Shown here one piece after another: positions 3,108 through 49,139 of a stretch of 64,000 nt of DNA. The DNA is from Candidatus Falkowbacteria bacterium. Lineage in GTDB: Bacteria; Patescibacteriota; Patescibacteriia; Patescibacteriales; WJLG01. How positions within the stretch are numbered: the first letter of the stretch is position 1; each line of letters opens with the position of its first letter. Both the position numbers and the translations under genes were made by a program. Location: assembly GCA_963747695.1 (NCBI GenBank), contig CAVVFV010000008.1, forward strand, positions 267,592 to 331,591, read 5' to 3'. Under the pieces are notes generated by a model that worked only from the letters and a program-made list of their open reading frames with translations, made no database searches and was not told the origin of the DNA.

Positions 3108-4115
3108 ATGGCCACAGATTCCTTGCTAAAAAATAAAATCAACTATCGAGACCCTTCGTTTTTGGCTTTGGTCGGGGATTTTTTAAATTCCGCCGCGGCC
3201 GAAGACGATTCGAAACAGGCACTTAATTTAAGCCGAATCATCGGTAATTTTTTGGCGCGGAAAAAAAGTGAAATGGAGCAAAACCCGGATCTTTATGATT
3301 TTTATCGGAAGGCTCTGATAAAAGCGCAATTCATCGCTTTGCCGCTTTTGGATAACAACGTTGCGATTGATCTACTTAAAAATCATTTCATTACTCAATT
3401 TGAGATCGATTTCTACGATCTACTGGATAAATTCCGCACAAAATTGATCAACATTCCGGTTTACGAGGACCGCGACGCTTTGCGTAGGGAAATCGGGAAA
3501 ATTCTTTTGGATAGCGGCCAACTCTTGACCGGCGGGGCAATGCCGCCGCGGACGGTGGGCGAGTGGATCAAAGATTACAGCGCCAAATTAGGCATTGGCC
3601 GAGCGGATAGCTTGAAAAGAACCCAATATTTTTTGGATCTGGGTCGGGAGAGGAAGCTAAGCGAAAAAGACCAGAGAAAGTTAAAAGCCCTGTTCGATCT
3701 TTATGAGGAGACCAAGATATCCAGTTTAGAACCTTTTGGTTATGATTATGACGTTCCGATAATCGTCGACGGGAAATATTTTATTTTCAAAAGAGGTATT
3801 CTGGAAAAATTAGAAGGCAATGAAAATGAATTTAATCGAATCAACGGGCTATTAAAAACCGGGGAAGAAGAAGCCGCGGCTGCGGCAGGACAAAAGCCGG
3901 CCATTGCTCCTGGCGCGCCGAGGGCCAAGGGAATTCCAGTCTCACCCAGAGGAGTGCCTGCTTCGTCTTCCGCCACCGGTTTCGCGGCGCTTTCGGCGGC
4001 CGATAAGCAAATCGACGATTTAAAACAAACCGCCGCAAAATATCGTCCCGGCAGTCTCCAAAGAAAAGCGGTGGAAGCGGAAATAAAGAAGTTAGAAGGC
4101 AGAAGTCAGAAGTAA
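3108..4115 (+). CDS. hypothetical protein (T4SS-like cluster)
   Basis: 335-aa ORF 19 nt after the previous stop, same strand. Ala/Pro-rich segment near the C-terminus. The last codons (KKLEGRSQK*) are encoded by the heptamer array that follows. Confidence 0.75.
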   Translation: MATDSLLKNKINYRDPSFLALVGDFLNSAAAEDDSKQALNLSRIIGNFLARKKSEMEQNPDLYDFYRKALIKAQFIALPLLDNNVAIDLLKNHFITQFEIDFYDLLDKFRTKLINIPVYEDRDALRREIGKILLDSGQLLTGGAMPPRTVGEWIKDYSAKLGIGRADSLKRTQYFLDLGRERKLSEKDQRKLKALFDLYEETKISSLEPFGYDYDVPIIVDGKYFIFKRGILEKLEGNENEFNRINGLLKTGEEEAAAAAGQKPAIAPGAPRAKGIPVSPRGVPASSSATGFAALSAADKQIDDLKQTAAKYRPGSLQRKAVEAEIKKLEGRSQK

Positions 4116-4147
4116 GAAGCCAGAAGTTAGAAATCAGAAGTTAGAAA
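4088..4147. repeat. left arm of cassette 1: tandem heptamers GAAGNNA (~8.5 units)
   Basis: gaagtta gaaggca gaagtca gaagtaa gaagcca gaagtta gaaatca gaagtta gaaat; reverse-complementary to the CTTCTTA array at 4542-4574. Confidence 0.9.
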
Positions 4148-4166
4148 TATTCAACAATGATTTAAT

Positions 4167-4541
4167 ATGAGGGAGGGAAGTTATCAGGACATTGATCAGA
4201 GGACGTTTAATTTTGCCAATAGGGTTATTAAGATGATTCCGCAATTACCTAACAATGTGACAACTTGGAAAATAGGCGCTCAAGTAATTGATTCGGCCAC
4301 GTCAGTTAATTCTAATATTGTTCAAGCCCGCGGTGGATTATCAAAAAAGGATTTTACGCATCATCTAAGGATTTCTTTGAAAGAAGCGCGGGAAACCAAA
4401 AGATGGCTGGAAATGATCATTGCTGTCGGTTTGGCTCCTGAAGAAAAAATGTGCTGGCTGTTGGCGGAAAACGAAGAAATAATTTGTATTTTGGTTACAA
4501 TGATAAAAAATTCACAAGATGAAAGTTTGAACAAGGAGTAA
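4167..4541 (+). CDS. four-helix-bundle protein (23S rRNA intervening-sequence protein / Avd-like family)
   Basis: 124 aa. Motifs FNFANRVIKM...SATSVNSNIVQARGG.SKKDFTHHLRISLKEARETKRWLEMI are typical of the PF05635/TIGR02436 family as I recall it. No SD upstream. Confidence 0.85.
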   Translation: MREGSYQDIDQRTFNFANRVIKMIPQLPNNVTTWKIGAQVIDSATSVNSNIVQARGGLSKKDFTHHLRISLKEARETKRWLEMIIAVGLAPEEKMCWLLAENEEIICILVTMIKNSQDESLNKE

Positions 4542-4574
4542 TTTCTTACTTCTTACTTCTTACTTCTTACTTCA
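4542..4574. repeat. right arm of cassette 1: tandem heptamers CTTCTTA (~4.5 units)
   Basis: tttctta cttctta cttctta cttctta cttc directly after stop 4539-4541; next gene starts (GTG) at 4578. Confidence 0.9.
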
Positions 4575-4577
4575 ACC

Positions 4578-5396
4578 GTGTTGGAATATTTAGAAAAATT
4601 TAATAATTTGCCTGATGTCGTGAAACAGAAAATTTCCGCGCCGGTGGTAATGGCCGCACTGGAAGAGCTGGAAGGCGAGTACGGCGTGGAACTGGCCGGT
4701 TTCGTGATGCGCGTCATGGTGGGTGATTTGTATTATAAAAATTTGACCGCTAATCTGATCATCGAATATAATTTGGCGCCGGAAGTCGCCGGCAGATTGG
4801 CGCAAGATTTGCAAAATAGAATCTTTGATCAGGTAATGGACTATTTAAGCCAGCCCAAGGCGGCACCGGCTTCCCAATCGGCCGAAGCCGATGCTTCTTT
4901 TTTTGGCAGCCGAGGTACACCGATTCCATCGGCTGTTCCGGCGGCAGCGGCTGTTTTGTCCGTGCCGGGTCCGGCCAAGTCCGCCTACGCTGAAGCCACG
5001 GCGGACAAGCCGGTCCCGCCGGCGGTGCGCCGCGCGCCGGTGACTAACGTAGGAACGCAAAATCTTGCGTTCCTACAAAATAGAAATTATTTGGAAGAAG
5101 ACAAGGCTGACATTACGGCGGCGGGAAAAATATCCACGACGATGAAAGCAGTGCCGCAAGAAAAGGTGGAGGCGATGCTGGCGGCGGTAATTGCGGAAGC
5201 CAAAGTCAGTTTTGCCAGCTCCAGCCTGCTCAAAAGATTTCGGGAAATCCTGCTTTCTTATTTACGCGGCGTGCGGACCAAAGTCGAAGTCCGGGAAAAC
5301 TTGCTGAAAGATTTTGCCTCCGGCGGAGTGAAAATGTCGGAAGCGGAAGCGGATCGGATTTTGAATATCGCCCAAAAGAAATTGAACCGACGATGA
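4578..5396 (+). CDS. hypothetical protein (T4SS-like cluster)
   Basis: 272-aa ORF with a GTG start 3 nt after the repeat arm. Contains an Ala/Pro-rich middle and two embedded perfect or near-perfect hairpins (4982-5010, 5048-5075). Confidence 0.7.
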   Translation: MLEYLEKFNNLPDVVKQKISAPVVMAALEELEGEYGVELAGFVMRVMVGDLYYKNLTANLIIEYNLAPEVAGRLAQDLQNRIFDQVMDYLSQPKAAPASQSAEADASFFGSRGTPIPSAVPAAAAVLSVPGPAKSAYAEATADKPVPPAVRRAPVTNVGTQNLAFLQNRNYLEEDKADITAAGKISTTMKAVPQEKVEAMLAAVIAEAKVSFASSSLLKRFREILLSYLRGVRTKVEVRENLLKDFASGGVKMSEAEADRILNIAQKKLNRR

Positions 5397-5712
5397 AGAA
5401 AAGATTCGCCGGTTCCGGCAAGGTCACGGCCAAAAGCACGGCTAACGGCACCAATTTCATTTTTAACGAGGGCAGAGATAAAACAAGCTCTGGCGCGCGT
5501 AATGCTTCGCCTCAAAGGTTAGCCGGCGGTAACTTCCGGTCTGGGCAGGCGATCGCGATGTCGGTTATGATCTCACGGCTTTAAAAAATACCTCCGCCGC
5601 TAAGACTTCCGCCTACGCTAAGGCTTTGGCGGACAAGTCGGAGGCAGCAAGACCTTGCGGGCTGACCGCCGGATAACAAAATATTCCGCCAGCTCAGCCG
5701 GAAAAGGCCGAA

Positions 5713-6189
5713 ATGCAAAATACTGCCCCTGCGGCGGCGATTCCAGTCAATCCGCCCCCCATGGAAGCTGCGGTTCCGGTAAAAACAATCAATCACGAAC
5801 CAAAGCGGACGGCCGCGGTGATGGGAAATAAAAAACGGATGGAAGATATCAAACCTTCGCCGCGCACGATGAGCCCGATCGATGAATTGGCCTATATGGA
5901 TCTGGTAAATTTCCGCCGGCTTGATCCGTCGCCGGCCGCGCGCATCACCAAGATCGAAGCCAAGATCGCTTTGTTGGAAAAAGAAGGGATCGATAAAAAG
6001 ATCGAAGGCATCCGGGTCTGGCGGCTCAATCCCGTCAATAAGACTTATTTGTCGATGGGGCAGGAAAGCATTGCCGGCGGGAAGAGTATTGATGATATAA
6101 TCAAAGAGCGCAAGGAGCAGGGGTTGAATTATCTTTCCCAGGAAGAATTCGAAGCGGTGATGGATCTTAACAATAATCTCAGATTCTAA
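5713..6189 (+). CDS. hypothetical protein (T4SS-like cluster)
   Basis: 158-aa ORF with the first ATG after an in-frame stop at 5674-5676. The stop TAA 6187-6189 abuts the next heptamer array. Confidence 0.7.
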   Translation: MQNTAPAAAIPVNPPPMEAAVPVKTINHEPKRTAAVMGNKKRMEDIKPSPRTMSPIDELAYMDLVNFRRLDPSPAARITKIEAKIALLEKEGIDKKIEGIRVWRLNPVNKTYLSMGQESIAGGKSIDDIIKERKEQGLNYLSQEEFEAVMDLNNNLRF

Positions 6190-6221
6190 TCGCATAACGC
6201 ATAGCGCGTAACGCATAACGG
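6190..6221. repeat. left arm of cassette 2: tandem heptamers CGCATAA/CGCGTAA
   Basis: cgcataa cgcatag cgcgtaa cgcataa cgg; reverse complement of 6570-6600 with few mismatches. Confidence 0.92.
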
Positions 6222-6224
6222 TTT

Positions 6225-6569
6225 ATGGATTTTCATGAAGAATTAAAATTGCTTATTCATCAATATGTAAAGTTCGTTTATAGAGTGACAAAAAATTTCC
6301 CCAAGGATGAATTATATGGCGTAGTTTCACAATTCAGAAGAGCCACAATGTCCATAATGTTAAATTACGTCGAAGGTTATGCCAGAAGAACGGGAGATGG
6401 TTGCAAGGTATACAATAATTTTTTAAATATTTCCTATGGATCGCTGAAAGAATCAAAATATTTGTTATTTTTTTCCTTGGATGAAAAATATATTTCAGAA
6501 GAAGAATATAAAACAGGTTTTGAGTTATGTGATAGGATTGGAAAAATGATTTGGAGTTTGATAAATTAG
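6225..6569 (+). CDS. four-helix-bundle protein (23S rRNA IVS protein / Avd-like family)
   Basis: 114 aa; YVKFVYRVTKNFPKDELYGVVSQFRRATMSIMLNYVEGYARRT...SYGSLKESKYLL matches family hallmarks. Confidence 0.85.
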   Translation: MDFHEELKLLIHQYVKFVYRVTKNFPKDELYGVVSQFRRATMSIMLNYVEGYARRTGDGCKVYNNFLNISYGSLKESKYLLFFSLDEKYISEEEYKTGFELCDRIGKMIWSLIN

Positions 6570-6600
6570 CCGTTACGCGTTATGCGTTACGCGTTATGCG
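6570..6600. repeat. right arm of cassette 2: tandem heptamers CGTTACG/CGTTATG
   Basis: ccgttacg cgttatg cgttacg cgttatg cg directly after stop 6567-6569; next ATG at 6607. Confidence 0.92.
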
Positions 6601-7059: not shown

Positions 7060-7094
7060 TTAGTATTAAGTATTTGGTATTAAGTATTTAGTAT
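7060..7094. repeat. left arm of cassette 3: tandem heptamers NAGTATT
   Basis: ttagtatt aagtatt tggtatt aagtatt tagtat, starting 1 nt after stop TGA 7057-7059 and ending at the ATG 7095. Confidence 0.9.
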
Positions 7095-7460
7095 ATGAGT
7101 GAAAAGATCAGGTCGTTCGCTGATTTGGTTGCCTGGCAAGAAGCTCATCGTTTAGTTATCATTATTTATCGAATAACCAACGATTTTCCGAGAGAGGAAA
7201 TTTTCGGATTAACCAATCAAATGAGGCGGGCAGTTATTTCTGTTTCCTCGAATATTGCAGAAGGCTTTGGTCGAGAAACAAATAAAGATAAAAGTCATTT
7301 TTACGTGATGGCCCGAACTTCCGTGGTAGAAATCCAGAATCAATTATTGGCGGCCAGAGATATCGGATATTTGAATCAAAAAAATTTTGATTTTGCCGCC
7401 AATAAGACTATCAAAGTTCATAAATTAATCAACGGACTTATCAAAAAAGTAAAATACTAA
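7095..7460 (+). CDS. four-helix-bundle protein (23S rRNA IVS protein / Avd-like family)
   Basis: 121 aa; LVAWQEAHRLVIIIYRITNDFPREEIFGLTNQMRRAVISVSSNIAEGFGRET...FYVMARTSVVEIQNQL is a textbook family pattern. Confidence 0.88.
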   Translation: MSEKIRSFADLVAWQEAHRLVIIIYRITNDFPREEIFGLTNQMRRAVISVSSNIAEGFGRETNKDKSHFYVMARTSVVEIQNQLLAARDIGYLNQKNFDFAANKTIKVHKLINGLIKKVKY

Positions 7461-7490
7461 ATACTTTATACTAAATACGAAATACTAATC
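7452..7490. repeat. right arm of cassette 3: tandem heptamers AAATACN
   Basis: aaatact aaatact ttatact aaatacg aaatact aatc. Overlaps the last codons and stop of the 4HB gene. The next ATG is at 7492. Confidence 0.9.
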
Positions 7491-7491
7491 T

Positions 7492-8181
7492 ATGGCAGAA
7501 AAGACTAATCAATTAGCCAAAGGGAAAATCAGCGTCTCCACCCAGCAGTATTTGGATATTGCCGAGATCAAGGATGATGTCGTGGTGATGCGCGACGGCA
7601 CTTTGCGGGCCGTGCTTTTGGTTTCCAGCATCAATTTCGCTTTGAAAAGCGAAGACGAGCAGGAAGCGATCGTTTCTTCTTATGTCGGCTTTTTAAATAA
7701 TATCAATTTCCCGGTGCAGATCGTCATCCAGTCGCGTAAGCTGAATATCGAAGGATATCTGGCCGAATTAAAACAAAAAGAAAAAGAACAGCTGAACGAG
7801 CTGTTGAAAATCCAGACTCATGAATATATCGAATATATCCAAGAATTGGTATCGCTCGGAGAAATTATGAGCAAAAGTTTTTATGTCGTCGTGCCGTACA
7901 ATCCTTTATCCGACAAGCATAAAGGTTTCTTTTCTTCGATCAATGAGGTCTTGAAACCGGCGACTTTGGTCAGGATGAAAGGGAAAAGATTTGATCGCTA
8001 CAAGAAAGAACTGGACCGGCGTTTGGAGTCGATCGCCTCCGGTCTTGCCTCGGCCGGGTTGAAAACCGTGCAGCTGGACACCCAAGGTTTGATCGAATTG
8101 TACTATAATACTTATAATCCGGTAACCGCGGAAAATGAAGAATTGACCGAGATGAAGAATTTGCAGATCACCGAACCATAA
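7492..8181 (+). CDS. hypothetical protein, T4SS-cluster associated (possibly a detached VirB4 N-terminal-like module)
   Basis: 229-aa ORF directly upstream of VirB4. The segment IAEIKDDVVVMRDGTLRAVLLVSSINFALKSEDEQEAI resembles the N-terminal region of monoderm VirB4/TraE ATPases from memory. Not verified. Confidence 0.6.
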   Translation: MAEKTNQLAKGKISVSTQQYLDIAEIKDDVVVMRDGTLRAVLLVSSINFALKSEDEQEAIVSSYVGFLNNINFPVQIVIQSRKLNIEGYLAELKQKEKEQLNELLKIQTHEYIEYIQELVSLGEIMSKSFYVVVPYNPLSDKHKGFFSSINEVLKPATLVRMKGKRFDRYKKELDRRLESIASGLASAGLKTVQLDTQGLIELYYNTYNPVTAENEELTEMKNLQITEP

Positions 8182-8274
8182 CGCATAACGCATAACGCAT
8201 AACGCATAACGCATAACGCATAACGCATAACGCATAACGCATAACGCATAACGCATAACGCATAACGCATAACG
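8177..8274. repeat. 14 perfect tandem copies of CATAACG (left arm of an empty stem)
   Basis: Counted unit by unit, 8177-8274. The array begins inside the last codons and stop of the upstream gene. Confidence 0.97.
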
Positions 8275-8337
8275 ATTATGCTTTAACGGGTGTGATAAAG
8301 GGAAAGAAAAATTAATTTGTCAACATAATTTACAGCA

Positions 8338-8368
8338 CCGTTACGCGTTGCGCGTTACGGGTTACGCG
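8338..8368. repeat. right arm of the empty stem: CGTTACG-type heptamers
   Basis: ccgttacg cgttgcg cgttacg ggttacg cg. It is the reverse complement of the CGCGTAA/CGCATAA family. The VirB4 ATG follows at 8374. Confidence 0.88.
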
Positions 8369-8373
8369 AATAC

Positions 8374-10296
8374 ATGATAGATATAAGAAAATCAAATTTG
8401 GAAACCAAACGACCTCCGACCGAAGAGGAAGTGCTGAACGCCCAAGGCGGCAATGAAAATATTGCCGTTGTCCAGGAATTGGTCGAGGAAGAAAAGGCAT
8501 TTCGCCGCGGCGTTCTGTCGGTTTTGGATTTGATCGCTCCGGCGGCGATGCAGATGTTTCCCGATCATCTTCGCCTTGGCGACAAGTTTGTCCGGACGAT
8601 TTTCATTATCGGTTATCCGCGCTATATCAGCGTCGGCTGGTTCGCGCCGGTCATCAATCTGAACGAAGTTTTCGACGTGGCGATGTTTTTCTATCCGGTC
8701 AATACGGCGATAATCCTGAAGCAGCTGAAGAAAAAAGTCGGCGCGCTCGAAGCCCAGATAATTTCGGACGCGGAAAAAGGCGCGGCCCGCGATCCGCTGC
8801 GGGAAACCGCTTTGAAAGATATCGAATACTTGCGCGACGCCCTGACGCAGGGGATTGAGAAATTTTTCCAATTTTCTCTTTATGTCACCATTTATTCCAA
8901 CACCAAAGAAGATCTGGATAAGCTGTCCAATCAGGTCGAGGATATTTTCGGCTCGCGCCTGGTTTATTCCAAAAAAGTATTTTTCCAATCCGAGCAGGGT
9001 TTTAATTCCACTCTGCCGTTATGTAACGATGAATTGTACATCACTTTCAATATGAATTCTTCCCCGGCCGCTTCCTCTTTTCCTTTTATTTCGAGCGATC
9101 TGACGAGCGACCATGGAATCTTGTATGGCATCAACCGCCATAACAACAGCCTGATCCTCTTTGATCGGTTCAGTTTGCAGAACGCCAACAACGTCGTTTT
9201 CGCCACTTCCGGCGCGGGCAAGAGTTACGCGATCAAATTGGAAATATTGCGTTCGCTGATGATGGGCACGGACGTGATCATCATCGACCCGGAATATGAA
9301 TATAAGCATTTGTCCGAATCGGTCGGCGGCACTTACATCAACATCTCGCTAGCGAGCGAGGAAAAGATCAATCCGTTCGATCTGCCGCGCTCGATCGGCG
9401 GCGAATCCAAACCGGCCGACATCATCCGCGGCGCGGTGATTACCGTCAAAGGCTTGGTCCGCTTGATGCTGGGCGATCTTAACCATACCGAAGATTCGAT
9501 CGTCGATCGCGGCCTTTTGGAAACTTATGCCAAGAAAGATATCACTCCCGATGCCGACCTCTCGACGGTCGAAGCGCCGGTGATGCAGGATTTTCAGGAA
9601 GTTTTGGAAGGGATCGAGGGCGGCGCCGATCTGGCGATGCGTTTGCGCAAATATACCGAAGGGACTTTTGCCGGAATCTTGAACAACCCGACCAATGTCA
9701 AACTGGACAATCAATTGGTTTGTTTTTCCGTCCGCGACTTGGAAGATGAATTGCGGCCGCTCGCGATCTATACCATCATCAATTATATCTGGAATATCGT
9801 CCGGTCGGAATTGAAGAAAAGGATTCTGGTGATCGACGAGGCTTGGTGGCTGATGCAGAACGATGACAGCGCCAAATTCATCTATGCCCTGGTCAAACGC
9901 TGCCGCAAATATTATCTGGGCGTCACCACCATTACCCAGGACGTCAATGATTTCTTGCGTTCGCCTTATGGCCAGGCGATCGTGACCAACTCCTCGCTGC
10001 AATTATTGCTGAAGCAATCGCCGGCGGCGATCGATCTGATCCAAAAGACTTTCGTGCTGACTGAAGGAGAAAAATATCTGCTGTTGGAATCGGGCGTGGG
10101 CGAGGGGATTATTTTTGCCGGCAACAAGCACGCGGCGATCAAGATCGTCGCTTCCTACAGCGAGGATCAATTGATCACCTCGGATCCGCGGCAATTGCTG
10201 GAAATCGAGGAAGCCAAAAAAGAATTCGCCGCTTCAATGGATCAATCAGGCGGCCAGCCGGCCGCCGCTCCCGCCTTGCCGGATATGGAAATTTGA
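8374..10296 (+). CDS. virB4: VirB4/TrbE-family type IV secretion ATPase
   Basis: 640 aa. Walker A is ATSGAGKSY and Walker B is ILVIDEAWWLM. The N-terminal GYPRYISVGWFAPVINL...FFYP region is typical of VirB4/TraE (AAA_10). Confidence 0.85.
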   Translation: MIDIRKSNLETKRPPTEEEVLNAQGGNENIAVVQELVEEEKAFRRGVLSVLDLIAPAAMQMFPDHLRLGDKFVRTIFIIGYPRYISVGWFAPVINLNEVFDVAMFFYPVNTAIILKQLKKKVGALEAQIISDAEKGAARDPLRETALKDIEYLRDALTQGIEKFFQFSLYVTIYSNTKEDLDKLSNQVEDIFGSRLVYSKKVFFQSEQGFNSTLPLCNDELYITFNMNSSPAASSFPFISSDLTSDHGILYGINRHNNSLILFDRFSLQNANNVVFATSGAGKSYAIKLEILRSLMMGTDVIIIDPEYEYKHLSESVGGTYINISLASEEKINPFDLPRSIGGESKPADIIRGAVITVKGLVRLMLGDLNHTEDSIVDRGLLETYAKKDITPDADLSTVEAPVMQDFQEVLEGIEGGADLAMRLRKYTEGTFAGILNNPTNVKLDNQLVCFSVRDLEDELRPLAIYTIINYIWNIVRSELKKRILVIDEAWWLMQNDDSAKFIYALVKRCRKYYLGVTTITQDVNDFLRSPYGQAIVTNSSLQLLLKQSPAAIDLIQKTFVLTEGEKYLLLESGVGEGIIFAGNKHAAIKIVASYSEDQLITSDPRQLLEIEEAKKEFAASMDQSGGQPAAAPALPDMEI

Positions 10297-10360
10297 GACG
10301 GATAAAAAACTCAGTAAACAATATAAATTTACATATAAATATTAATTCGGCTTTGAATTT

Positions 10361-10393
10361 ATTGTCATATTGTTATATTGCCATATTGTTGTG
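10361..10393. repeat. left arm of an empty stem: tandem octamers ATTGNNAT
   Basis: attgtcat attgttat attgccat attgttgt g. Confidence 0.85.
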
Positions 10394-10450
10394 CGATGGG
10401 TTAAATAGTAAAAGACAATGATTTGATGAACAAGATTGGAAAATTGTTTC

Positions 10451-10483
10451 TAACAATATAACAATTTAGCAATATAACAATTT
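10451..10483. repeat. right arm of the empty stem: tandem octamers (reverse complement of ATTGNNAT)
   Basis: taacaatat aacaattt agcaatat aacaattt; next ATG at 10491. Confidence 0.85.
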
Positions 10484-10490
10484 AAAATCT

Positions 10491-22800: not shown

Positions 22801-25800
22801 GCGCCATTGCCGGAGTGGCCACCGGTAATATCACCATCCAAAATGTTACCAGCACGGTTTCTAATTTGACCGGCGAAGAAGTCGGCGGTTTGATCGGCGA
22901 TTATGAATATAATACCGAAGAATCGGATTCCGGGGCGGGATTTTCAATGGATAACGTCCACGTTTCTTCGGATATTTTAGTCGATGGCAGCGACGCCGGA
23001 GGTTTGATCGGCGATTTTGATAGCGCCGGAACAGTCCAGCATTCCATCACGAATAGCGGTTTTTCGGGGAATTTCAGCGGTAGCAACGGTTCTTACGTCG
23101 GCGGTCTCATCGCTGTAATTTCGAGTGACTACCAAGATAATTTTCTGATTGATAATTGTTCCTCGACCGGTGACATATTGGCACCGAGTTATCAGGCGGG
23201 CGGTTTGATCGGCGGTTTTTACACCGGCGATGATTCCCAATTGACGATTTCGCACAGCCATTTTTCGGGAAGCGAGATCGATGGCGCCGGTCCAACCGGC
23301 GGCATATTGGGCTATGCCGAAAATGATTCCTCTAATCCGACCAGGATCAGCGTCATCAGCCAGAGTTATTCCCAAGGAACCATAAATTCCACTGCCGGCG
23401 ACGCGGGCGGATTGATTGGTGAAATAGTTGGCTCAGTCAACTGCGGCGATTCCTGCATAAGCGGTTTTGTCATTTCGAATAGTTATTCCTCGGCCGACGT
23501 CAACGCGGTTGATAGCGATCTGGCCGGCGGTTTGGTCGGCGAAATGAATGGTCCGAATGCGGCAATTATGAATTCATATGCCTCGGGCAATGTTACCGGC
23601 GGTAGCTACATCGGCGGTTTGGTGGGCGATATGTATCAGACTTTACCGGTGATGTCGGTTAACCGGTCATATTTTTCCGGATCAGTGACGGGCGACGGCA
23701 GTTTTGTCGGCGGCCTGGTCGGCGATTTGGAAGGCACGAGCGTCCTGGCTAATTCTTTCAATGTCGGAGAAATTAGCAGTAGCGGCATACCCGGAGCTTT
23801 AGCAGGCAGCGCTGATGACGAAAATAATCTTATCAATGATTATTGGTTCGATTCTTTGGCTAACGGCGTCGGCAATGGCGCCGAAGACACCAGCCCCGGC
23901 CATTTTATCAAAGTCGATTCGGCTGATTCTTTTCAGAATAACGACACTAATCCGCCGCTTGATAAATGGAATTTCTCCGGACTAAATCCGAATTGGGTTT
24001 CAGCCGACGGGCTTTATCCCGCTCTCAACCCCGACCATAATTCCAACACCAGCGTTTACGTTCTTCAATATTCCGCCGGCTCTAACGGATCAATAACCGG
24101 CGCTGCCACCCAATTTGTTTTATCCGGAACCGATGGAATCGCCGTTACGGCCGTGCCCGATGATGGTTATCGTTTTGTGAACTGGAGCGATGATTCAACT
24201 GATAATCCCCGGACTGACACTAATGTCACTCAAGATATCTCGGTTACCGCTAATTTTGAACTTAATTCAGTTATTCAATATACTTTAACCTACACCGCCG
24301 GAGATAACGGTTCGATCGATGGCGATTCGCCCCAAACGGTGGATTCGGGGGCTGACGGTACGCCGGTCACCGCTGCACCGGCTGACGGTTATCATTTTGT
24401 GAATTGGAGCGATGATTCAACTGATAATCCCCGGGCTGATCTGGCTGTTACTCATGACATTTCGGTTACCGCCAATTTCTCGGCTAACGCAGTGACTCAA
24501 TATACTTTAACCTACAGTGCCGGCGATAACGGTTCGATCGATGGCGACTCGCCGCAGACCGTGGATTCCGGTTCGAATGGCACGGCCGTGACCGCGGTGC
24601 CGGCTACCGGTTATCATTTTGTCGATTGGAGCGATGCCTCGACCACCAATCCGCGGACTGATTATAACGTTACCCAAGATATTTCCGTCACCGCTAATTT
24701 TGCCATCGATACTTACACACTGACCTATACGGCCGGCGCCAACGGTTCGATTGACGGTGATTCGCCGCAGACGGTAGCTTACGGCGCTGATGGCACCGCG
24801 GTCATTCCTACTGCCGACGATGGTTATCATTTTGTAAACTGGAGTGATAATTCGACCGATAATCCTCGAACTGACACCGGAATCACCGGAGATATTTCGG
24901 TTACCGCTAATTTTGCCGCCGACTTGGCCGGTCAATTTACTTTGGCTTATGCCGCCGGAGCCAATGGCTCCCTTACCGGCAGTTCGACTCAAATAGTTAA
25001 TTCCGGCGCCGACGGAACAGCGGTAACCGCCGAACCGGATAGCGGCTATCATTTTGTGAATTGGAGCGACAACTCGACCGATAATCCTCGAACTGATCTG
25101 GCAGTGGGGGGAGATATTTTCGTTACGGCTAATTTCGCGGCTAATCCAGCCACCCAATATACTTTGACTTATTTTGCCGGGGCTCACGGCTCGATAACGG
25201 GAAGCTCAACGCAGATTGTCGCTCCCAGTTCCAACGGAACAGCCGTAACTGCTGAACCGGATAGTGGTTATCATTTTGTCGATTGGAGCGATGCCTCGAC
25301 CACCAATCCGCGGACTGATTACAATATCATTCAAGATATTTCCGTTACCGCCAACTTCGCGGCTAATCCGGTTACTCAATATACCTTAACTTACTCAGCC
25401 GGAGCGCACGGTACAATCACGGGTAGCAGTCCTCAAAACGTGAATTCCGGTTCAGATGGTACGGCGGTCACGGCTGTGCCGAATTCCGGCTATCGATTTG
25501 TCAATTGGAGCGATAATTCTACGGTTAATCCGAGAACCGATCGAAATGTTTCCGGCGATATTTCAGTTACTGCGACTTTTGAAATTATTCCCGCTCAATC
25601 TGGCGGCGGCGGAGGCGGCAGTGCACCAATTTCCATCCCGGCTTGTTCGGCGGTCGTCTACGGTAATTGGGGAAGCTGCGTCAACGGCCTTCAATATCGG
25701 GATATTTTAAGCCAGTCTTCGGCCAACTGCCCGTTAACACCCGCCCAGCAGGCAGCCCGATCAATGGTTTGCGGCATTGTTCCGACTACCCCGATCGTTA

Positions 25801-33763: not shown

Positions 33764-33835
33764 TGCTCTCGACAGGAATCGAACCTGTATCGCAAGCTTC
33801 GGAGGCCTGCGTCCTATCCGTTGAACGACGAGAGC
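33764..33835 (-). tRNA. tRNA-Arg (anticodon CCG)
   Basis: Hand-folded cloverleaf: acceptor GCTCTCG/CGAGAGC, D arm GTTC-AACGGATA-GGAC, anticodon arm CAGGC-CTCCGAA-GCTTG, T arm ACAGG-TTCGATT-CCTGT, discriminator A. No encoded CCA. Confidence 0.88.
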
Positions 33836-33962: not shown

Positions 33963-34032
33963 GGAAAATAATTATAAATTACAAATTATTAATTAAAAAT
34001 TATCGGTATAATAATGCAGTTAGATTTATTTA

Positions 34033-45442: not shown

Positions 45443-45510
45443 CGCAGAATAAATTTAGTTACTGCAAGGATTTTGTTAAACAAATATAAAATTAGCTAAT
45501 ATTAAAAATA

Positions 45511-45540
45511 GAGTGACAACTTTTTATCGCACAAACCCGA
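45511..45540 (+). repeat. island-distal 30-bp direct repeat
   Basis: gagtgacaactttttatcgcacaaacccga (differs from the proximal copy only at tgt/cac). Confidence 0.85.
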
Positions 45541-45566
45541 GTGGTTCAAATCGCTTACTCTCCGCT
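45541..45566 (+). other. tRNA-Ser 3'-end-like remnant (candidate displaced att half-site)
   Basis: GGTTCAAATCGCTTACTCTCCGC versus tRNA GGTTCGAATCCCATCCTCTCCGC (19 of 24 identical), same orientation. Confidence 0.55.
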
Positions 45567-45569
45567 CAA

Positions 45570-45606
45570 AATAAAATCCCGACATAGAGTCGGGATTTTA
45601 TTTTTA
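45570..45606. terminator. bidirectional rho-independent terminator
   Basis: aaaatcccgac-atag-agtcgggatttt stem flanked by an A-run and a T-run. Confidence 0.8.
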
Positions 45607-45634
45607 ATAAACAGTAGCCGTCGAAAGTATTCGG

Positions 45635-48964: not shown

Positions 48965-48991
48965 TTTTATCATTCTTAAGTTTATTTTTTC

Positions 48992-49117
48992 GTCATCCCG
49001 AAGCGGCTCGCGAGGGATCTGTCTCAGCGGATTTCAATATTCATCGAATAATCCTATGATCTCCGTTAATCTCGCTTGGATTGAAAGAGATTCCTGGCGA
49101 GCCGCTTCAGAATGACT
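48992..49117. mobile_element. 126-bp MITE-like element with ~29-bp terminal inverted repeats (GTCATCCCGAAGCGGCTCGCGAGGGATCT)
   Basis: The left end and the reverse complement of the right end match at 25/29 positions. Sits between two SRPBCC paralogs. Confidence 0.75.
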
Positions 49118-49139
49118 AATTATTATTAACTTTAATAAT

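Follow-up and report, generated by a model that had tools for sequence, protein, structure and literature searches.

What is a palindrome without a gene, one arm of which is an uninterrupted run of 14 heptamers, doing between two protein-coding genes of a bacterial operon? At 3-11 kb, the window (the whole 64-kb stretch of DNA analysed here) carries a Patescibacteria T4SS-like operon that encodes a 335-aa protein, a frameshifted homologue of 523 aa, PrgI, a 229-aa TraC-N protein, a 640-aa VirB4 ATPase (VirB4-C), a 203-aa protein and RadA. The palindrome fills the TraC-N / VirB4-C spacer, and its parts and flanking genes are as follows.

7492..8181, + strand: stand-alone VirB4/TraC N-terminal domain protein (TraC-N), 229 aa, with weak TraC_F_IV and VirB4 N-terminal matches
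8177..8274, no strand assigned: left arm, 14.0 perfect CATAACG units in the register CGCATAA, an expanded and homogenised array
8275..8337, no strand assigned: loop of 63 nt with no ORF
8338..8368, no strand assigned: right arm, about 4.3 units of CGTTACG/CGTTGCG/GGTTACG, the complement of CGCGTAA-type units
8374..10296, + strand: VirB4 C-terminal ATPase part (VirB4-C), 640 aa, matching P-loop_TraG and, with 348 bits, a CD1110-family VirB4-like ATPase model

A sequence-only reading of this DNA had described 14 uninterrupted CATAACG copies beginning in the last codons of the upstream gene, and Tandem Repeats Finder reported exactly that: 14.0 perfect units at 8177-8274 (period 7, 100% matches, score 196). 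The upstream ORF ends in GAA CCA TAA, its last sense codon and stop (8179-8181) lying inside the first repeat unit. The same reading's four units of complementary heptamer at 8338-8368, its 63-nt loop without a gene and its VirB4 start codon 5 nt further on were likewise recovered. Tandem Repeats Finder called 8339-8368 as a period-7 array of 4.3 copies (82% matches, consensus CGTTACG); the ORF list holds no plus-strand ORF of at least 30 aa in the loop at 8275-8337; and the five nucleotides AATAC separate the right arm from the VirB4-C ATG at 8374. Directly after the right arm comes AATACATG. An ATG 3 nt past the left array opens a frame of two codons in the loop, and the minus-strand ORFs beginning 'MRYALCV...' were set aside as artefacts of the repeats. 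Between 8177 and 8373 we found neither a terminator-like site (a short G+C-rich stem followed by a T run) nor a promoter-like site. An Rfam scan of the window returned three tRNAs only, with no known RNA family at the element.

The element has company. Five consecutive spacers of the operon are filled by hairpins with tandem 7- or 8-nt arms, three of them enclosing a gene and two not, and the rest of the 64 kb has no hairpin with periodic arms of this kind. The other four are listed below.

4087..4573, + strand: occupied cassette 1, AGAAGTN x8.6, HB1 gene at 4167-4541, TTCTTAC x4.4
6190..6600, + strand: occupied cassette 2, left arm at 6191-6220, HB2 gene at 6225-6569 (114 aa, PF05635), right arm at 6571-6600
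7060..7488, + strand: occupied cassette 3, AGTATTA x4.7, HB3 gene at 7095-7460, AAATACT x5.3
10360..10485, no strand assigned: second ORF-less hairpin, in the spacer between VirB4-C and the next gene, octamer arms TATTGTYA x3.8 / TAACAATW x4.4

The three cassette genes belong to PF05635/TIGR02436, the four-helix-bundle (4HB) S23p/IVS-protein family; a PF05635 ORF, present in these three neighbours, is lacking from the loop of the window element. Among the related loci surveyed below, the gene and arms of cassette 1 recur in L001 and L042, and the octamer family of the second ORF-less hairpin borders a 4HB gene in L056.

Of these neighbours it is cassette 2 that shares the repeats of the window element, as had been proposed. 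Allowing up to two mismatches, the family pattern CGCRTAACGCRTAACG gave 22 matches in the 64-kb window against 0.13 expected by chance, all of them confined to the two arms of cassette 2 (6191-6220 and 6571-6600) and to 8175-8274 and 8339-8368, which establishes the family relation. A search with HB2, followed by five context look-ups, found HB2-type genes (62-90% identity) in five operons unrelated to one another (T4SS, GatC/GatA, RecJ/RNase H, HTH/epimerase and pilus). Each of these genes is co-oriented with its neighbours and lies between a left arm of the type (NGCRTAA)n and a right arm of the type (TTAYGCN)n. Because HB2-type genes keep CGCRTAA arms across five operons, gene and arms must move as one unit. 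When compared with these five cassettes, the window element showed the same arm pattern, (NGCRTAA)n / (TTAYGCN)n, with a GCGAA end ahead of the downstream start, and it therefore belongs to the HB2 (CGCRTAA-armed) lineage.

The link between gene subfamily and arm sequence extends beyond HB2. Other 4HB subfamilies retain their own heptamers across distant genomes, and different junctions have a heptamer family in common in 35% of cases within genomes versus 18% between genomes (at least 6/7 matches, p = 0.009). A period of 7 prevails both in arrays near 4HB genes (37/54) and in those of ORF-less junction inserts (114/215). The median copy number of period-7 arms is 4.1 (IQR 3.4-4.4), and arms have a mean length of 30 nt on both sides. 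We therefore consider that the feature probably belongs to the IVS-type palindromic insertion elements of the HB2 lineage, as a copy that lacks an ORF.

How stable is such an element at its junction? We surveyed 165 sequences: the window plus 164 loci, each retrieved through its TraC-N homologue, of which genomes supplied 80, metagenomes another 80 and exact-protein look-ups the remaining 4. The operon and 4HB genes were mapped in all; exact-sequence look-ups with the window's own TraC-N protein gave no match. The TraC-N / VirB4-C junction could be compared in 155 loci. It is shorter than 45 bp in 115 of these (typically 3-20 bp), measures 45-300 bp without an ORF in 39, and is occupied by a 4HB gene in one, L086. 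The same three states recur at the neighbouring junctions, each of which is occupied in 2-8 loci. The following relatives illustrate the range of this junction.

L001, 97% TraC-N identity: 113-bp ORF-less hairpin with CCGTAAC arms
L085, 95% TraC-N identity: 97-bp hairpin with GCAAGTA-type arms
L002, 93% TraC-N identity: 159-bp hairpin with a 4HB N-terminal relic in its loop
L086, 88% TraC-N identity: 429-bp insert, the HB3 cassette, which in the window lies one junction upstream
L087, 87% TraC-N identity: 72 bp, a palindrome unrelated to the window's
L088, 86% TraC-N identity: 4 bp, no element
L089, 86% TraC-N identity: 67 bp, a decayed element

The survey also disposes of the idea that the element split VirB4 in two. 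Among the best 120 of 7164 TraC-N homologues, proteins are 210-243 aa long and carry PF26593; an N-terminal ORF of about 228 aa is thus conserved, and at 115 of 155 junctions the spacer is below 45 bp. The division of VirB4 into two ORFs is ancient and conserved.

The polymorphism of insertion is plain from these loci, and filled junctions show no visible target-site duplication when set against the empty L088 junction. L086 is especially informative. Its occupant of the TraC-N / VirB4-C junction has its own AGTATTT/AAATACT arms, unrelated to those of the window element, and its PrgI / TraC-N junction holds an ORF-less hairpin that can be aligned with the window element over the right arm, the GCGAAT tail and the 3' part of the loop. 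The right arm, GCGAAT tail and 3' half of the loop in the window are thus homologous both to L001, at the same junction, and to L086, at a different one. Since the HB3 cassette and the ORF-less hairpin sit in swapped spacers in the window and L086, the two elements are exchanged between adjacent junctions in the two strains. Taken together, these comparisons show that the elements are fast-turnover insertions rather than conserved parts of the operon: strains whose flanking protein is 86-97% identical differ by the gain, loss or replacement of an element.

Such turnover bears on the two origins that the sequence-only reading had offered, a landing pad awaiting a gene and a site from which a gene was deleted. 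According to the first, arms pre-exist as an empty, attC-like recombination site for a 4HB cassette. Although occupied and unoccupied versions of the same junctions do occur, the arms are subfamily-specific and move with the gene between operons, as the HB2-type genes in five operons illustrate; the L086 occupant brought unrelated arms of its own to this very junction; and most relatives are armless there. The ORF list and a domain search revealed no integrase, recombinase or transposase in the operon. A landing pad is thus extremely improbable, and an integron attC site was rejected on similar grounds, there being no integrase in the region and the arms co-varying with the gene.

The second origin would make the element an in-situ deletion scar, in which an HB2-type cassette at this junction lost its gene internally and left the arms, the start codon and a few dozen bases. 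Part of this proposal stood: elements with and without a 4HB gene occur at the same junctions, and a sibling with 88% TraC-N identity, L086, has a 4HB gene at exactly this one. The L002 loop, which scored 11.3 bits in a 4HB profile search against a shuffle maximum of 7.7, retains an N-terminal relic at this junction too, and in L089 a remnant of the right arm is all that is left at PrgI / TraC-N. The arms of the window element are HB2-type, an ATG follows its left array by 3 nt as in HB2 cassettes, and a comparable loss is known from the Coxiella strain AuQ01, in which the ORF of an rRNA IVS has a 176-bp deletion (PMC4990558). What did not hold was a relic in the window itself. When the loop was aligned at the DNA level with the three 4HB genes of the window in search of a deletion scar, 82, 697 and 1059 of 2000 shuffles scored at least as well, so that two cassettes were no better than shuffles and the third was marginal; a six-frame profile search of the loop gave at most 1.0 bit. 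As a group, 128 ORF-less loops yielded 471 4HB profile matches versus 2437 in a five-fold larger shuffle set, which is no excess, and the L002 loop alone rose above shuffles. Moreover, no surveyed relative has an HB2 gene at TraC-N / VirB4-C, and a homologous ORF-less element lies at another junction in L086. The ORF-less state is common to the window and to its 97% relative L001, and hence was already present in their common ancestor. We regard a scar formed in place as unlikely; gene loss remains tenable only for the lineage as a whole.

The ortholog of the left arm in L001 consists of 4 mixed CCGTAAC/TCGTAAC units that match the L001 right arm, and the right arm of the window still predicts CGCGTAA/CCCGTAA partners. 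Given these two observations, the 14-copy array is a derived, homogenised expansion of one variant unit. Only 5/151 period-7 arms surveyed reach 8 or more copies. These comparisons bear out the earlier suggestion of a recent expansion by slippage: the array is a recent, lineage-specific expansion from about 4 to 14 units, and slipped-strand mispairing is its most likely cause. The three other largest expansions are also left arms, namely CAAGTAA x15.4 in L067, an array of 12.6 copies at TraC-N / VirB4-C in L156, and one on plasmid pANA02 of Anabaena sp. 90, in which about 33 GTGACAG units on the left face 4.3 on the right.

Only one assembly provides the count of 14 copies, and the array could be real while its length is an assembly artefact. 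A near-identical Logan contig from another sample (L004) ends inside the array after 3.7 units, and many homologous 4HB genes are found on contigs shorter than 2 kb, which we read as assemblies breaking at repeats. Against this, a 98-bp array is shorter than common read lengths, and comparable expansions occur in the independent assemblies L067 and L156 and in the finished plasmid pANA02. We consider an artefactual length quite improbable. More generally, such arrays seem to break assemblies, and they inflate calls of intergenic 'structure' in Patescibacteria genomes.

Does the array serve the host? If the heptamers in the 5' leader of VirB4-C varied in number, they could tune or phase-vary its expression. 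The left array stops about 100 nt ahead of the ATG and the right arm 5 nt ahead of it; heptamer tracts are prone to slippage; and heptamer SSRs together with an RNase III-targeted 5'-UTR structure are described as governing hmw expression in Haemophilus influenzae (PMC12721329). In addition, L004 differs from the window by 3 bp at the edge of the array, where CCA is missing before TAA, and this variant is the sole hint of variation at the population level. However, the element is missing at this junction in 115/155 relatives and is replaced by unrelated sequences in close ones. Arms typically have 4 units, and expansions are rare and scattered. The element contains no promoter-like site, and the ORF-less elements show no strand asymmetry, as described below. 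A regulatory device is therefore very unlikely.

The expansion has weakened the pairing of the arms. The right arm had been described as complementary to the array, which is true with respect to CGCGTAA-type units but not to the expanded CGCATAA unit, to which it has one mismatch per unit; on the sense strand, this is an A.C mismatch in every paired unit. For arms of about 31 nt, the duplex was calculated at -31.9 kcal/mol, compared with -63.6 for a perfect complement and -49.9 for cassette 2. Thus, the 14-copy expansion halves arm pairing. The fold of the whole element was no better than that of shuffles on the plus strand (z = -1.2) and gave z = -4.1 on the minus strand, where the arm mismatch is G.U. 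In a first set of 79 elements, G.U pairs were commoner on the sense strand (p = 0.009), as might be expected if selection acted on the sense RNA. This signal was gone in a larger, de-duplicated set of 119 ORF-less elements with shuffle controls, in which neither the use of G.U pairs (p = 0.55) nor folding energy differed between sense and antisense, and which thus gave no support for selection on sense RNA. In view of the missing asymmetry across the 119 elements, a palindrome acting purely at the level of DNA fits the data equally well. A further candidate function, that the heptamers are modules providing stops in three frames, was also rejected, as stops in all three frames were present in 29% of left and 36% of right arms (p = 0.34).

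These results lead to the following picture. In each element, a loop lies between two inverted arms of about 30 nt, and each arm is built from about 4 tandem heptamers. The loop has either a promoter-less PF05635 gene, read in the same direction as the host operon, or nothing recognisable. Such elements occupy the intercistronic spacers, normally 3-20 bp, of compact Patescibacteria operons. In the window copy or a recent ancestor, slipped-strand mispairing most likely amplified the variant unit CGCATAA from about 4 to 14 copies, overwriting CGCGTAA/CCCGTAA units and leaving one mismatch per unit with the unchanged right arm. In the surveyed loci, every one of the 29 4HB genes points the same way as its operon and leaves no room for a promoter, so the element is likely to be co-transcribed with its host genes. 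By analogy with 23S rRNA IVSs, the arms may form a stem that RNase III can cleave, which would separate the TraC-N and VirB4-C messages; the stem of the window copy would be about half as stable as the ideal one. Most likely, the window copy is mere baggage, either neutral or slightly deleterious, and not a host device. In our best reading, it is a partly degraded copy of a selfish or neutral element that is tolerated only in the intercistronic spacers of a compact genome.

The 23S rRNA IVS of Coxiella burnetii resembles these elements in several ways. It is 428 nt long, its ends pair in a 28-bp stem, it contains an S23p (PF05635) ORF with 2-3 tandem GACAGAT heptamers, in a number that varies between strains, ahead of the ATG, and it is excised by RNase III (PMC4990558); 23S rRNA IVSs with an S23p ORF have also been reported for Leptospira and Brucella. 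Like the elements described here, it has inverted arms of about 28-30 nt with strain-variable tandem heptamers in the 5' arm, the number of which differs in our case between the window (14) and L001 (4). Like the occupied elements, it carries a sense-oriented, promoter-less PF05635 gene within a total of about 420-460 nt. Its ORF is likewise prone to decay and internal deletion, and its distribution is sporadic, suggesting mobility. By contrast, the Coxiella IVS lies in an rRNA helix and its excision by RNase III is established, whereas the window element sits between two protein-coding ORFs of an operon and not in a 23S or 16S rRNA helix. It also has no ORF, and one of its arms has 14 units that are mismatched to the other. 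The ORF-less IVSs in 23S rRNA of Salmonella, Campylobacter and Yersinia are closer in this respect, being short gene-less stem-loops that are sporadic among strains and harmlessly removable, but they lie in rRNA helices 25 and 45, and no heptamer-array arms figure in their description (PMC4990558).

The architecture also recurs around 4HB genes of three other phyla. We sampled 12 PF05635 genes from plasmids of Cyanobacteria (Nostocales and others), Riemerella and Azospirillum, and all 12 had arrays of 7-8 nt units on both flanks. The paired arrays were visibly complementary in most of them; in a few, the matching left array was about 100 nt upstream or could not be identified. Two of the 12 genes lie inside CRISPR-cas operons.

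Other small elements share some of these features. REP/REPIN sequences and MITEs are also small, non-autonomous intercistronic palindromes with presence/absence polymorphism and a gene-carrying relative in the same genome. Here, however, no Y1 (RAYT) or other transposase was found, the partner gene encodes a 4-helix bundle, there is no target-site duplication, and the two family members in 64 kb have their arm repeats in common while their inner sequences are unrelated. We rejected a MITE or REPIN, for want of many near-identical copies, a target-site duplication and a cognate transposase. Integron attC cassettes are similar in carrying promoter-less small genes between imperfect inverted repeats in the orientation of the host transcript; they differ in that no integrase is present here, the elements are dispersed in operon spacers instead of forming an array, and the arms are subfamily-specific tandem heptamers. 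The DGR accessory protein Avd (bAvd, PF22296) belongs to the same four-helix-bundle fold family, and HB2 and HB3 matched Avd below the family cut-offs. Yet no reverse transcriptase or TR/VR pair was identified in the operon region at ~0.2-12.6 kb, and DGRs use long direct repeats instead of inverted heptamer arrays.

The STRR sequences of Cyanobacteria and the TAACTGA repeats of Beggiatoaceae are, like the arms described here, intergenic tandem heptamers that often end just ahead of a start codon (PMC4679880). The Beggiatoaceae repeats are reported to differ in being direct repeats, with a single inverted case (PMC4679880). Intergenic tandem heptamers of this sort border the cyanobacterial 4HB genes that we sampled.

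Considered on its own, the locus is a case of ordinary decay, and the wider system of subfamily-specific arms across phyla is of more interest. What is new here is an IVS-type element outside rRNA, in ordinary operon spacers, without a gene and with one arm expanded. Close strains display presence and absence, gene loss, arm expansion and exchange between neighbouring junctions. The strict pairing of protein subfamily with heptamer leads to a testable hypothesis on the IVS-encoded proteins, that the protein recognises the repeats. Beyond the remark on heptamers in the Coxiella study (PMC4990558), we found no literature linking 4HB/S23p genes to heptamer arrays or to Patescibacteria.

A bolder generalisation, which we hold to be doubtful, is that 4HB genes and inverted arrays of about 4-5 heptamers form a universal module across phyla. 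In this module, a pentameric ring of 4HB proteins would recognise subfamily-specific heptamers in RNA or DNA, as TRAP does with triplets, and ORF-less hairpins would be acted on in trans by HB2, the gene for which lies 1.6 kb upstream of the ORF-less hairpin at 8177-8368. If this is true, the trans action of a 4HB protein could serve mobility or the processing of operon transcripts, and the module would join rRNA IVSs, cyanobacterial heptamer repeats and a protein family without known function.

The elements on either side of TraC-N differ in placement between related loci. In the comparison locus L086 (Ga0335071_10099317), whose TraC-N is 88% identical to that of the window, an ORF-less hairpin of the CGCRTAA type (1353-1493) and the HB3 cassette (2181-2609) occupy the two junctions flanking TraC-N, each at the junction that holds the other in the window. 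The window also contains the following repeats, hairpins and a promoter-like site.

8089-8118, promoter-like site TTGATC-18-TATAAT (10/12), inside the 3' end of TraC-N and about 60 nt upstream of the array
10360-10485, ORF-less hairpin, the second in the window, whose arms are octamer repeats (TATTGTYA / TAACAATW), between VirB4-C and a 203-aa gene
24161-24636 and 25012-25411, a 222-bp unit repeated in tandem in two arrays, with 76-81% matches
33970-34003, heptamer array AATTATA x4.9, separated by about 135 nt from the tRNA gene at 33764-33835
45500-45609, intergenic palindrome with non-periodic 30-nt arms, 73% complementary
48989-49119, intergenic palindrome with non-periodic 38-nt arms, 82% complementary

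The octamer family of the second hairpin recurs around a 4HB gene in another fetched locus, L056, and the window has no 4HB gene cognate to these arms. The palindrome at 48989-49119 appears to resemble a G+C-rich, GGGAATC-type palindrome at the PrgI–TraC-N junction of locus L042, a type that may form a separate element family. No inverted partner of the AATTATA array was detected, and the 222-bp arrays are probably repeated domains within a large protein. Across the whole region, promoter-like sites such as that at 8089-8118 are about as numerous as in shuffled sequence.

Cassettes carrying 4HB genes were also found on cyanobacterial plasmids. On Anabaena sp. 90 plasmid pANA02 (L171), a 4HB gene lies immediately 5' of cas4, and its locus carries two arrays.

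L171 1-232, left array of GTGACAG, about 230 bp and about 33 units
L171 745-774, right array of 4.3 units

On a plasmid of Picosynechococcus PCC 7003 (L174), a 4HB gene at 292-648 sits between cas10/cmr2 and cmr3. From these two positions, we conclude that 4HB cassettes invade the spacers of cyanobacterial CRISPR-cas operons.

The contig of L004 (Logan ERR11748453) is identical to the window over about 1.08 kb, except that it lacks CCA before TAA (L004 1070-1104, window 8170-8200), so that its protein has 228 aa rather than the 229 aa of the window. One end of this contig falls within the array and the other just within the HB3 gene, directly past the left arm of cassette 3; the placement of both ends at repeat arrays suggests that such repeats may interrupt assemblies. 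Breaks at flanking arrays would also fit the matches to the HB2 protein (P0121-P0240), where many HB2-type 4HB genes come from contigs of less than 2 kb. The window's own HB2 sequence was absent from these matches, the best of which was 90% identical.

Elsewhere in the operon, the 272-aa and 158-aa ORFs at 4578-6189 are two parts of a single gene, whose counterpart in the close relatives L001 and L002 is an uninterrupted ORF of 523-528 aa. The window copy is frameshifted, because its alignment with the L001 protein follows frame 1 as far as about 5498 and resumes in frame 2 at 5545; the copy is either a pseudogene or the product of a sequence error.
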